Shown here one piece after another: positions 28,790 through 34,954 of a stretch of 64,000 nucleotides of DNA (positions are counted from its first letter, which is position 1; each line of letters begins with the position of its first letter). The notes under the pieces are model-generated. The model was given only the letters and a program-made list of their open reading frames with translations. It was not told the origin of the DNA and did no database searches. Source of the DNA: Mobula hypostoma (Eukaryota). The stretch lies in contig NC_086097.1 of the NCBI RefSeq assembly GCF_963921235.1, forward strand, positions 66,218,001-66,282,000. The letters run 5' to 3'. The position numbers and the translations under genes were made by a program.

Positions 28790-30700
28790 ATGTGGAAAGA
28801 GGAGAGAAGTGGGGAAGTTAAGATATGATCGGCAGTAGGATCTCTTTAGAGATAGCAGAGGTTGAGGAGGACGATGTGTTGGATGTGGCGGCTCATTGAG
28901 TGATAGGTAAGGACACGAGGTGGTGGGAAGATGGGTTGAGTGCAGATGTTCGGGAAATGGAGGAGATGCAGGTGAGGACAGAATCAATGGTGGAGCAAGG
29001 GAAACCCTGTTCTTTGAAGAAGGAGGACATCCCTGGTACGGAAAGCCACATCTCGGGAACAGATGCGGTGGAGACGAAAGAACAGAGAAAAGGGAATAAC
29101 ATTTTTACAGGAGGCAGGGTGTGAAAAAGTATAGTCAAGATAACCGAGGGAATCAAGAGGCTTATAAAAGATGTTGGTCAACAGTTTGTCTCCAGAGATG
29201 GAGACAGAGTGATCAAGAAATTGGGGAGAGGTGTCAGAAATGGACCAAGTGAGTTTAAGGGCGGGGTGGAAGCTAGAGATAAAGTCAATGAAATTGAAGA
29301 GTTCAGCATGGGTACATGAAGCAACACTAATGCAGTCATCAATGTACTGGAGGAAGAGTTAGGAAGCATTACCAGGGAAGGCTTGGAACATGAACTGTTC
29401 TACATAACCAATGAAGAGTCAAGCATAACTGGGTCTATGCGGGTGCCCATGGAGAAAGTGGGAGGAGCCAAAGGACAATTTGCTGAGGAAAAAATTTGTT
29501 GAGTTGCTCAGACAGAGGAGGATGATGGTGGAGGCCAACTGGCTGGTTCTTTTATTGAGAAAGAAATGGAGAACTTCAGGGCCTTGATGGGGGATAGAAG
29601 TGTATGAACATCCATGTGAAAATAAGCAGACAAGACCAGGGAATTGAATGTTACTGAGGAGATCAAAGGCATGAGAAGTGTCACAGATGTAGGTGGGAAG
29701 GGAGTGAAACAAGGGGATAGAATGGAGTTGAGGTGTGGGGACACGTTCAGTTGGGCAGGAGCAGACAGAGACAAGAGACCTGCCCTGACAGTCAAATTTG
29801 TGGATCTTAGGTTCAAGGTAGAAGCGAGTAGTGATGGGTAAGGGAACTCTGCATTTTGTGGCAGTGGATGGGAGCTCTCCAGAGTTGATGAGGTCAGTGA
29901 TGGTGTTGGAGGCAGTTTTGTAATGGTCCAGATTGGGGTCCTCTTCAAGGGGTAGGTATGAGGAAGTGTCTGGGAGTTGCTGCCTGGGCTCAGCAAGGTA
30001 GGGATCAGTCTGCTACACTACAACAAACACCCCCCTTGTCTGAGGGTATGATGGTAAGGTTGGGATTGGTGTGGAGAGAGTGGAAGGCAGAGCAGCCAGA
30101 GGGGGTAAGGTTCAACAAAGTGAGAGAAGAGGCTGAAGGCATGATGGTTGATGTCTCATCAGCAATTCGAGATAAACAGATCTAGAGCACAGTGTCCAAG
30201 AAGAGGAGGAGGGTTGGATATGGAAGAAGGGGTAATTAATGTGGGGTGTGGAATTTTTGCCAAAGAATGGGGCTCGGGGACAGATGCAATGGAAGAAGAA
30301 TTTAGCATAATGGCAAAGGGGACAAAGGTAAGGCCCTTGCTGAGGACAGAACTTCCTGCCTCTGAGAGGGGAAGGTTGAAGGGAATGGTGAAGATACAGC
30401 AATGATTAGAGTTGGGATCAGAGGGGTGAAGAGAGCTGGCAGTGCCAGAGGAGAGAAGAGGGTTGGGGTGTTCAGGAAAGGTGGGGTGGGAGGAAAATGG
30501 AGGATCCAAGGACCGAAGAGATGGTAGTGGAGCCTGAGAGACACCGGGTTGGAGAGTGGTAGTGAGGAAAGGAAGCCTGGGGGCTCAGCGGCAGTGAGGA
30601 AAGTCCGGGCCTGGAGGTGCTGGTGGTTGAGGTCCAGGCTGAAGCCAGAGCTAGAGGCTGAGCAATTTGCAGCGTGAAGGCGACCAGGGTCATAGGAACC
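28790..30700 (-). mobile_element. Penelope-like retroelement RT (degenerate)
   Basis: Motifs LSEAGSSVLSKGLTFVP, PSYA, YIDDC (~29331-29346) and FYKP.DS..YLDY..SHP.SCKN.IPFS.F.RL.RICS. Multiple frameshifts. Confidence 0.88.
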
Positions 30701-33070: not shown

Positions 33071-33745
33071 AACGAGAATCAGAATCAGATTTAATATCAC
33101 CAGCAATAAAGTTGTTAATTTGATGTTTTTGTGACAGTAGTACAATGCAATAGAAAAGAACAGTAAATATATATGTATTTATGTACAACTATAAAACCAA
33201 AAAAGTAGTGAAGTTGTGTTCATGGGTTCAGTGTTCATTCAGAAATCAGAAGGCAGACGTGAAGAAGGTGTTCCTGATTCATTGAGTGTTTGCCTCCTTC
33301 CTGATGGTAGCAATAAGATCTAGCCGTGACCTGGGTGATGGGGGTCCTTAATGATGGATGCCGCCTTTTTGAGGCTTTGCTCCTTGAAGGTGTCCCGGAA
33401 GCTGGGGAAGCCAGTACCCTTGATGAAGATTACTAAGTTTATGAGTCTCTGCAGTTTATTTCGATAACAAAAGCCGGTGATGCAGCCAGTTAGAATGCTC
33501 TTCACAGTACAAGAGTAGAACTTAGCCAGTGTCAAATCTCTTCAAACTCCTAATGAAATACAGCCGCTGTCGTGCCTCTTTGTAACTGCATCGATATGTT
33601 GAGCCCAGGATAGATCCCCAGAGATATTAAAGATTTGAAATTGCTCACTCTTTCCACTTCTGATCCCTCGTTTTACCCTCAAGCAACATACGTCAAAGTT
33701 GCTGGTGAACGCAGCAGGCCAGGCAGCATCTCTAGGAAGAGGTAC

Positions 33746-33781
33746 AGTCGACGTTTCAGGCCGAGACCCTTCGTCAGGACT
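33746..33781 (-). ncRNA. Minimal type I hammerhead ribozyme motif (mirror copy)
   Basis: Exact reverse complement of 33787-33822. Confidence 0.75.
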
Positions 33782-33786
33782 GTGTT

Positions 33787-33822
33787 AGTCCTGACGAAGG
33801 GTCTCGGCCTGAAACGTCGACT
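33787..33822 (+). ncRNA. Minimal type I hammerhead ribozyme motif
   Basis: AGTC-CTGACGA-AGGGTCTCGGCCT-GAAAC-GTC^GACT: core boxes CUGANGA and GAAA, stem I AGTC/GACT, GUC triplet, and a loopless palindromic helix III (ACGT). Confidence 0.75.
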
Positions 33823-34214
33823 GTACCTCTTCCTAGAGATGCTACCTGGCCTGCTGCGTTCACCAGCAACTTTGATGTGTGTTGGTTGAATTTCCAGCAT
33901 CTGCAGAATTCCTGTTGTCCTCGTTTTACCCTTCCTGACGTCCGCAATCAGCGCTTTGGTCGTACTGACGTTGAGTGCAAGTTTGTTTAAGTGTTAGATG
34001 TCATGCCGAATCTTCGTAAACTCCTAAAGAAGTCATCCTTTTGTCCCTAAGATTGATTGTTAGCATGAAGCAAAAACAGCTCAATAACTCAAGAAAAAAG
34101 TTCCAAAATAAAAAGTATTAACTGGCAAAATATTTTATTTTCGGCGCAAATTACTCATTTCACCATATGTTTTAATGTACATGTGCTAAATAAGTATATC
34201 AGAATCTGGTTCTG

Positions 34215-34467
34215 TTATATAAACAATGCGGATAGCTCTGGAGCCGAGCTCGAGCTCTGCAGAGAAATCTCGGAGCTCTCACTTCCGCGACCGAGGCTGC
34301 AGGCGTGGCCTTCGGCTTCCCGGTTCCTAAGCAACGGCGTCCAGCCCAACGGTCGCAACGAACGCGAGGCCTCGAGCAGCCGGGCTGAAGGACAAGATGG
34401 CCAGTGGCAAGCGAAGCTTTTTGCGAGCAACCCCTGTCTACGCACCTTTTGCGCTTCCCACCTAAAG
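34215..34467 (+). promoter_or_regulatory. CpG-island promoter and first exon, probably of the TTC6-like gene
   Basis: CpG-dense unique DNA. Motifs: forkhead TATAAACAA 34218-34226, ETS ACTTCCG 34281-34287, X-box GGTTCCTAAGCAAC 34322-34335, MYB-like CAACGG (e.g. 34347-34352), YY1/Kozak CAAGATGGCC 34393-34402. Donor AAG/GTAAGA after 34467. Confidence 0.7.
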
Positions 34468-34954
34468 GTAAGAGGGAAGAATTAAAAACAAGCATCGCAA
34501 CCAATTATAGACAGGTAGTTATAAGAGGAGGCAAGCTGGACTCGGTTCTTTTTGTTTGCCACTGTAATATTTCATTTCCACAGAAGACTTCACTAACTGC
34601 ACCTGAGGTGTGACTTTGTATCTTGCAATCGGGGCCAGATGAGAAAATGTTTTAAATATTCGTATTTTAAGTTACGCAAAGCTATATTGATGGCAGTGTT
34701 CACAGTACGAAATTGATACTGCAAATGTGGAGGAACTCAGCGAAGTAGTCGTCTTTCACCTTTCGCCGGGGTTGTCTTCTCAAAGTTTACGACGATGTTG
34801 CTGGCATTTCCAAAGCAAGATTAGAACATGAATATTGGATATGAGGCAGGTTATTTCACCGTAACAACTATATATAATCGTCACAACTAAATAACATCCA
34901 ATCCTTAACTCGCCACTTAGATGGGCGTACCTCAATGGTATTGGGTCAATGGTA

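Follow-up and report, generated by a model that had tools for sequence, protein, structure and literature searches.

Penelope-like elements (PLEs) are retrotransposons whose insertions leave an unusual set of marks. In the part of Craig et al. (2021; PMC8557442) drawn on here, PLE insertions are described as strongly 5'-truncated, often with an inverted, 5'-truncated copy directly adjacent. Further traits given there are target-site duplications (TSDs) of variable length, a hammerhead within the pseudo-long terminal repeat (pLTR), and a 30-40 bp tail that is often confined to a single end. A purified PLE protein, that of Poseidon_Ac, was found to cleave and extend both DNA strands, and its reverse transcription starts at two internal RNA sites, the tail being the stretch between them (Frangieh et al. 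2024; PMC11167929). The Poseidon hammerhead cuts only in the presence of the protein and is dispensable for insertion in vitro (PMC11167929). Minimal hammerheads in PLE terminal repeats, including opposite-strand pairs about 100-700 bp apart, are reported in the sections of Cervera and de la Pena (2014; PMC4209133) used here, where truncated PLEs are said to carry mostly single motifs. The locus compared with these systems is a 239-bp insert with a hammerhead motif on each strand, found in Mobula hypostoma (assembly GCF_963921235.1, contig NC_086097.1, forward-strand positions 66,218,001 to 66,282,000). This whole stretch of 64,000 nucleotides is referred to as the window, and coordinates without a locus name are those of the window.

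The insert is very probably a non-coding, 5'-truncated 3' end of a PLE joined head-to-head to an inverted second copy, likely in one event of target-primed reverse transcription. An earlier note, made from the letters alone, had instead described a palindromic mobile element of retrozyme-like kind. The features are as follows, with identities given relative to a reference copy of the element described below.

33666..33679, no strand: left TSD, 14 bp, CCTCGTTTTACCCT; an exact direct repeat in the window
33680..33781, minus strand: left arm, the PLE 3' end in inverted orientation, truncated at its 5' side and without the tail; inverted repeat, 95% identity to the reference
33746..33781, minus strand: minimal hammerhead motif by descriptor match; predicted cut between 33750 and 33749
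33782..33786, no strand: fold-back turn GTGTT, the junction of the two copies; copy-specific sequence
33787..33889, plus strand: right arm, the PLE 3' end from hammerhead helix I to the proximal 3' end site, by identity to the reference
33787..33822, plus strand: minimal hammerhead motif by descriptor match; predicted cut after 33818
33890..33918, plus strand: one-sided tail extension, 29 nt, with no partner in the left arm
33919..33932, no strand: right copy of the 14-bp TSD; exact direct repeat
34230..34470, plus strand, context only: CpG-rich stretch (GC 0.61, CpG observed/expected 0.97)

A repeat search recovered the layout that had been read by eye, namely a 239-bp insert (33680-33918) with 103-bp arms, a 5-nt spacer and a 14-bp TSD. 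The inverted arms (33679-33781 and 33787-33889) are 103 nt each, 96% complementary and 5 nt apart, and over an 88-nt core they are 97.6% identical. The insert is asymmetric, with 33890-33918 unpaired with the left arm, and its proposed non-coding nature is supported. The reference copy is L064:2793-5660, which represents an element of about 2.9 kb in 2,868 nt. The right arm and tail were found to be 98% identical to reference positions 2687-2821 (the last 135 nt), and the left arm 95% identical to 2690-2792 on the minus strand (the last 103 nt). The right arm with its 29-nt extension is the last ~135 nt of the element; the left arm is the same sequence inverted and without the extension. The junction between them is specific to the copy, and the flanking duplications vary. 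The extension corresponds to the 30-40 bp tail of known PLEs (PMC8557442, in the part used, and PMC11167929).

The family was surveyed in the window's own genome (3.48 Gb). With the insert as query, 2,379 first-look candidates were found, of which the best 40 scored were all full length at 87-100% identity. Flanks were studied in 30 copies, two of which failed the anchor; direct repeats of 6-16 bp (median 13) flank each of the other 28. In the 30 copies the 3' tail runs 0-13 nt beyond ...CCTGTTGT (ending TGTTGT) as a variably truncated TTGCGTTTT, and the insert 5' end shifts by a few nucleotides. The left flank beside the arm is unrelated DNA with no second tail in all 30. Variable duplications together with a variable 3' end point to target-primed reverse transcription rather than to cut-and-paste.

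The parent element was identified with a less biased query, the last 119 nt only (33800-33918), which stops short of the junction. About two thirds of the 30 loci retrieved extend upstream into a pyrimidine-rich region. In the long copies the order is reverse transcriptase (RT), CX4CX2C linker, GIY-YIG endonuclease with its stop codon, about 300 nt of pyrimidine-rich DNA, and the hammerhead unit. The open reading frame (ORF) upstream of the pyrimidine-rich region ends GLLYIGETQRRLGDCFAEHLRSV... and is preceded by the linker GTYPCKRNKCYTCPY, and the long copies L063 and L064 have 2.83 kb in common at 94% identity. On the decayed ORF L062:3680-4465, RVT_1 was detected at E=9e-6 (26 bits). For the RT piece L063:3775-4731, 189 homologues reach E<=1e-5 (best 5e-154), the best named ones being uncharacterised bamboo shark proteins with 67-68% identity. 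In full-length homologues both RVT_1 and, C-terminal to it, GIY-YIG exceed their Pfam cut-offs. In one of them, P0040, RVT_1 scores 38.8 bits and GIY-YIG, at residues 839-919, 28.5 bits against a cut-off of 22.6. Two endonuclease fragments of the window's genome, L062:4155-5081 (P0040 residues 713-929, E=4e-31) and L031:9087-9359 on the minus strand (residues 848-929, E=1e-16), align across this GIY-YIG domain.

Motifs can also be read directly, namely DKG, YIDD, CKRNKCYTC and GVIYCVRC..GLLYIGET..EH. The first stands in the context PADKGGAVVVW (L064:2786-3772), and GVIYCVRC...GLLYIGET...AEH is legible across copies with two cysteines between GIY and YIG (CCHH). DKG, a CX2-5CxxC linker and a CCHH GIY-YIG are features of endonuclease-containing (EN+) PLEs of the Neptune/Nematis type, as given in the part of PMC8557442 used here. 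The element thus shows the RT, the CCHH GIY-YIG, the DKG motif and the CX4CX2C linker of EN+ PLEs, and by motif reading alone its clade would be of the Neptune/Nematis kind. When the RT and endonuclease pieces were searched against PDB sequences, nothing meaningful was returned. The link to PLEs made in the earlier note is borne out, the arms being the 3' end of an RT/GIY-YIG element.

Two side observations concern PLE coding sequence. At L064:5186-5655 and in several other long copies the endonuclease ORF ends TAATG, and from its ATG an open frame of about 150-180 codons spans the pyrimidine-rich region, the hammerhead and the tail; in pyrimidine-rich DNA such a frame may be due to chance. 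Within the window, 28919-30470 on the minus strand holds an older, diverged Penelope-like coding fragment, 70-77% identical to reference positions 150-1766.

When the 30 loci were mapped on the reference (L048, L050 and L051 being classed as long copies from their sequences), an adjacent inverted partner was found by BLAST at 14, with a 15-nt remnant at one more. Twelve of the 14 partners are tail-less and end at reference 2784-2794; the right units end with the tail at 2820-2828, an end point set by the choice of query. Inverted junctions occur at many positions of the element (e.g., reference 2379/2482, 2528/2484, 2556/2572 and 2607/2395). The 5' ends of the right units cluster at the 5' edge of the hammerhead, nine of the 30 falling within 24 nt (2678-2701), with helix I starting at 2690. 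The remaining 5' ends are scattered over 1879-2663 or belong to units longer than 1.5 kb. Single-arm copies with the same 5' end were also found (L043, L055 and L020:394-519). The sampled copies are single or inverted. Partial tandem copies that form pLTRs are another trait of EN+ PLEs; here part of the element is briefly duplicated in direct orientation at L058 alone, where reference 2670-2720 precedes 2556-2826, in a sample to which no search aimed at full tandems was applied.

Contigs of four public runs from three related organisms break just before the hammerhead edge, RNA and DNA not being distinguished in these data, which hence do not bear on transcription, strand, RNA ends or level. 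The contigs also end after two 3' positions about 40 nt apart, and an opposite-strand joint at the hammerhead edge is present in them. The marks of a PLE insertion are therefore found together, in the form of an adjacent inverted 5'-truncated copy, a one-sided tail and a variable TSD, and among insertions of this ordinary kind the 239-bp form is the most frequent class, not a separate element. L058 and L059, which are independent copies, both begin exactly at ATCCTCTCATATCCCC (reference 2556). The direct partial copy that precedes L058 ends ...GAAACGT, one base short of the predicted cleavage site.

The hammerhead motif was examined with an own descriptor, composed of a helix I of 4 bp, CTGANGA, a helix II of at least 3 bp, GAAA, a palindromic helix III core of 0-6 nt, and TH. 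It gave exactly two matches in the window, the same 36-mer at 33787-33822 (plus) and 33781-33746 (minus), and zero matches on both strands of 200 dinucleotide-preserving shuffles of the window. The descriptor was written after the motif had been seen, and the shuffle control is therefore generous to the finding. On the plus strand the layout is AGUC / CUGACGA / A-GGGU-CUCG-GCCU / GAAA / C-G / UC^ / GACU, the caret marking the predicted cut, with the core CUGACGA, GAAA and GUC in type-I order. Helix I pairs AGUC with GACU plus a U.G; helix II pairs GGGU with GCCU under a CUCG loop; an unpaired A follows position 9 (between 9 and 10.1); and helix III is the palindrome ACGU (15.2-16.2). The claims of an identical minimal hammerhead on each strand, of type I with a palindromic helix III and with a plus-strand cut predicted after C33818, agree with the descriptor.

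The covariance-model check proposed alongside those claims gave another outcome. No Rfam hammerhead was found at the gathering score in the window, nor at E<=10 on 33300-34300. Below threshold, Rfam returned only generic long-hairpin microRNA (miRNA) models (among them MIR839, whose 125 bits compare with a cut-off of 200), and a PrrB/RsmZ match was set aside as chance.

In likeness to the metazoan PLE minimal hammerheads described in the available part of Cervera and de la Pena (2014; PMC4209133), the motif has the CUGANGA, GAAA and UH core, a helix I within their 4-5 bp, no helix III hairpin, and a palindrome at 15.2-16.2 (ACGU) through which two units could pair as a dimer. It differs from them in its helix II, which has 4 bp with two G.U pairs instead of 6-8 bp, in the change of G10.1-C11.1 to G.U in the dominant variant, and in the spacing of its two motifs, which are only about 40 nt apart, whereas the pairs in that account are separated by 100-700 bp. 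In contrast to Poseidon_Ac, whose ORF starts inside the hammerhead, the endonuclease stop codon here precedes the motif. The start sites of Poseidon_Ac fall about 85-92 nt after the cut; here the predicted cut is followed by the proximal 3' end after 71 nt and by the tail end after 100 nt.

An older, diverged PLE family was compared through 21 copies, after removal of eight near-identical loci of a cluster on contig 40. It keeps 33 of the 37 motif positions and retains all core nucleotides, the differences being at N7, loop II, 11.1 (C to U, one-sided) and G12 (CpG decay in old copies), and C11.1 is its state. The sequence just downstream of the motif is much less alike between the families; other conserved blocks are GATGCTGCCTGGCCTGCTG, a GT-rich stem and the tail. 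No compensatory helix change was found between the two families, their helices being otherwise invariant. Conservation without compensatory change therefore neither supports nor contradicts the helices. Conservation of core positions among copies was rejected as a test because copies decay neutrally after insertion. As for the contig 40 cluster itself, nine loci (L083-L091, 31-42 Mb) hold near-identical hammerhead units of the older family, seven with one common upstream flank and two (L085 and L086) with another, which suggests a larger segmental or tandem repeat that carried one copy along. A 23-mer, AGTTAGTCCTGACGAAGGGTCTC, occurs 56,162 times in the genome.

These data leave considerable room, a little short of an even chance, for the explanation that the motif is conserved for some other reason, e.g., as a site of protein binding or folding, and is catalytically weak or dead in this PLE family. 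The exact 32-nt motif with G10.1.U11.1 has 39,517 genome copies against 6,052 for the C11.1 version, making the weakened form 6.5 times commoner, and the isolated 36-mer prefers an inactive fold (-10.0 kcal/mol, compared with -6.0 for helix I plus helix II). Published work points the same way, in that metazoan minimal hammerheads show low activity in vitro (PMC4209133, in the part used) and that hammerhead mutants have no effect on in-vitro insertion, cleavage needing the protein (PMC11167929). However, every core nucleotide is kept across two diverged families, and the Poseidon hammerhead does cleave with its protein, its C3 and G8 mutants behaving as those of a true hammerhead (PMC11167929).

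The centres of the fold-backs bear on whether the palindrome is inherited or made anew. In the alignment of 30 copies the arms are well conserved and the centre differs in nearly every copy. Between the anchors ...GAGACCCTTCGTC and GACGAAGGGTCTC... the centres measure 6-28 nt, with 23 distinct ones in the 26 copies that could be parsed (four of the 30 could not). The pattern GAGACCCTTCGTCA-N0-30-TGACGAAGGGTCTC occurs at 1,772 places genome-wide, and among the first 50 of these 34 distinct centres were counted by eye, the commonest being 'GGAC' (9 of 50) and 'GGACTTCCTTCAGTTAGTCC' (5 of 50); the window's centre occurs once among them. L026, L027 and L030 have the same centre and no private substitutions in common. 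Arm identity within a copy averages 95.5% (25 of the 30 copies delimited), compared with 94.2% between copies. Since the centres differ from copy to copy, junctions lie elsewhere along the element and duplications range over 6-16 bp, the palindrome was most likely made anew at each insertion rather than inherited.

On the rival explanation, the fold-back itself would transpose, as a non-autonomous hairpin RNA like that of short interspersed elements (SINEs) or retrozymes; master copies would be transcribed, and the PLE enzyme would copy the transcript in its entirety. The architecture shared by the best 40 of the 2,379 candidates, the recurrence of the two commonest centres, and the retention of the tail and the 3' start region that a PLE enzyme would need all suit such a unit. 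Nevertheless, it is improbable in view of the diversity of centres, the absence of common private substitutions in same-centre copies, the inverted junctions at many other positions of the long element, and the occurrence of single arms that start at the same 5' position. Moreover, an RNA folded into the predicted 103-bp hairpin (-213 kcal/mol) would serve poorly as a template. Animal non-LTR retrozymes are likewise non-coding, carry a type-I hammerhead, are related to PLE terminal repeats and are probably mobilised by PLE enzymes, as far as the portions used of PMC7229834 and of Li et al. (2026; bioRxiv 10.64898/2026.07.22.740005) describe them. According to the same portions they form head-to-tail tandems that give circular RNAs, whereas the insert is an inverted pair, and the repeat search found no direct (head-to-tail) repeat of the hammerhead unit at the locus. 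The description as a retrozyme-like palindromic element in its own right is therefore not upheld, its unit being the plain 3' end of a coding element.

Miniature inverted-repeat transposable elements (MITEs) and Foldback DNA transposons are small and of high copy number, with long inverted arms and flanking direct repeats. That the insert is such a cut-and-paste element with a fortuitous hammerhead-like motif is scarcely credible, for all its long inverted arms, its flanking direct repeats and the lack of an Rfam hammerhead, given duplications of 6-16 bp where a fixed length would be expected, asymmetric ends with a 29-nt tail on one side only, a 3' end of variable length, a copy-specific centre, arms collinear with the 3' end of an RT/GIY-YIG retroelement, and a motif absent from 200 of 200 shuffles with 33 of 37 positions the same in an older PLE family.

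For the preferred origin, an inverted double insertion of a PLE 3' end, the following course is proposed. The element's protein would cut the two strands with a stagger of about 14 bp. Two antisense complementary DNAs (cDNAs) would then be made, one from the distal start site with the tail included and the other from the proximal site without it. Both would extend roughly as far as the hammerhead's 5' edge, where they would be joined through little or no homology. Alternatively, one cDNA snapping back on itself would give the same product. The arrangement is alike to that of EN+ PLEs in the RT, the CX2-5CxxC linker, the CCHH GIY-YIG, heavy 5' truncation, an adjacent inverted copy, a tail at one end, variable duplications and a terminal non-coding hammerhead (Craig et al. 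2021, PMC8557442, in the part used). With Poseidon_Ac it shares a pair of 3' start sites separated by 30-40 nt (Frangieh et al. 2024, PMC11167929). Unlike known EN+ PLE insertions, those of this element most often have extremely short arms of about 135 nt, as a result of the clustering of 5' ends at the 5' edge of the hammerhead.

Several points weigh against this account, or against parts of it. On the genome's own decayed ORFs, RVT_1 falls below the Pfam cut-off of 29.6 and GIY-YIG was not detected by Pfam even at E<=10; the domains are therefore assigned from homologues and from motif reading. Helix II has only 4 bp with G.U at both ends, the conserved G10.1-C11.1 is replaced by G.U, and no Rfam hammerhead was found on the 111-nt stretch L064:5450-5560, even at E<=10. 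The clustering of 5' ends in nine of the 30 units and the recurrence of some identical centres (9 and 5 of the first 50 of 1,772 places) would fit a short RNA species as well, or, in a minority of copies, the propagation of an already folded-back copy. Finally, both two-sided priming and snap-back synthesis agree with what the sequence alone can tell.

The hot spot of 5' ends raises the question of where the element's RNA begins. In the reading preferred here, for which the case is about evenly balanced, it would start at the 5' edge of the hammerhead. Upstream of this edge, long copies (L064:5470-5490) read ...ACTAAC-TCTTCCTTCAG, followed directly by TTAGTCC. The sequence is compatible both with a 3' splice site (a branch-point-like ACTAAC, a polypyrimidine stretch, and CAG before TTAGTCC) and with an initiator (TTCAGTT); a 3' splice site in D. 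virilis Penelope provides a comparison (PMC4209133, in the part used). Many short copies have a non-genomic TG, GTG or GGTG instead of AG before TTAGTCC. An upstream spliced exon was considered as the source of these letters and rejected, no GGTGGT, GTGGTR or TGGTRAG being present anywhere in the 2,868-nt reference.

Among 20 sampled places of the TG class, nine are long copies with an A>T change, and the other 11 are 5' ends beside unrelated DNA (eight) or the inverted arm (three). At all 19 places of the GGTG class the upstream sequence is unrelated DNA (seven) or the inverted arm (12). The (G)(G)TG letters could reflect non-templated addition at the RNA 5' end, or a start one base upstream. 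A more specific proposal, offered tentatively and rather unlikely as it stands, is that a discrete RNA of about 135-145 nt, starting no more than a few nucleotides from helix I and perhaps made from an internal promoter with its start zone next to the ribozyme, would be a preferred PLE template, copied by the element's dimeric enzyme from both sides of a staggered break from two fixed starts 30-40 nt apart.

At the locus itself, the full insert is predicted to fold into a hairpin of -213 kcal/mol, compared with -6 for helix I plus helix II. The ribozyme is therefore not expected to fold in a transcript of the locus, because the 103-bp hairpin is far more stable, in agreement with the earlier suggestion that the long hairpin would outcompete the ribozyme. 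The further suggestion of a built-in off switch finds no such backing: nothing points to design, and the two hammerhead motifs are passengers, a by-product of the inverted double insertion. The locus copy is most likely inert and at most a source of hairpin RNA; it may be a source of double-stranded RNA, as had also been raised.

Around the insert, the CpG-rich stretch that had been placed some 300 bp downstream is present, its role as a promoter being putative. It follows a TATAAA-like box at 34217, and within 34217-34470 an ATG at 34397 opens a 22-codon frame whose stop precedes a GTAAGA donor-like site at 34468; from these signals, 34217-34470 may represent a first exon without coding sequence. 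Two 28-nt stretches in direct orientation (33530-33557 and 34004-34031; 75% identical) bracket the insert, which hints that the insertion target sat inside another, older repeat.

The insertion pattern has already been described for PLEs and is hence an ordinary one. The main value of the finding is correct annotation, in that a structure with the look of a MITE, a miRNA-type hairpin or a palindromic element with ribozymes is a routine PLE scar. The only conceivable effect at the locus comes from a 103-bp inverted repeat lying about 300 bp upstream of a CpG-rich stretch, which would give hairpin RNA if transcribed. Two further points are of specialist interest. The sharp clustering of 5' ends at the ribozyme edge may mark an RNA start, and if a short RNA were indeed the preferred template, fold-back scars would be the default product of the element. 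The most successful variant has a weakened 10.1-11.1 pair, which fits the published dispensability of cleavage in vitro; under the same short-RNA template, the dominance of the G10.1.U11.1 variant would imply that this family can spread without ribozyme catalysis.

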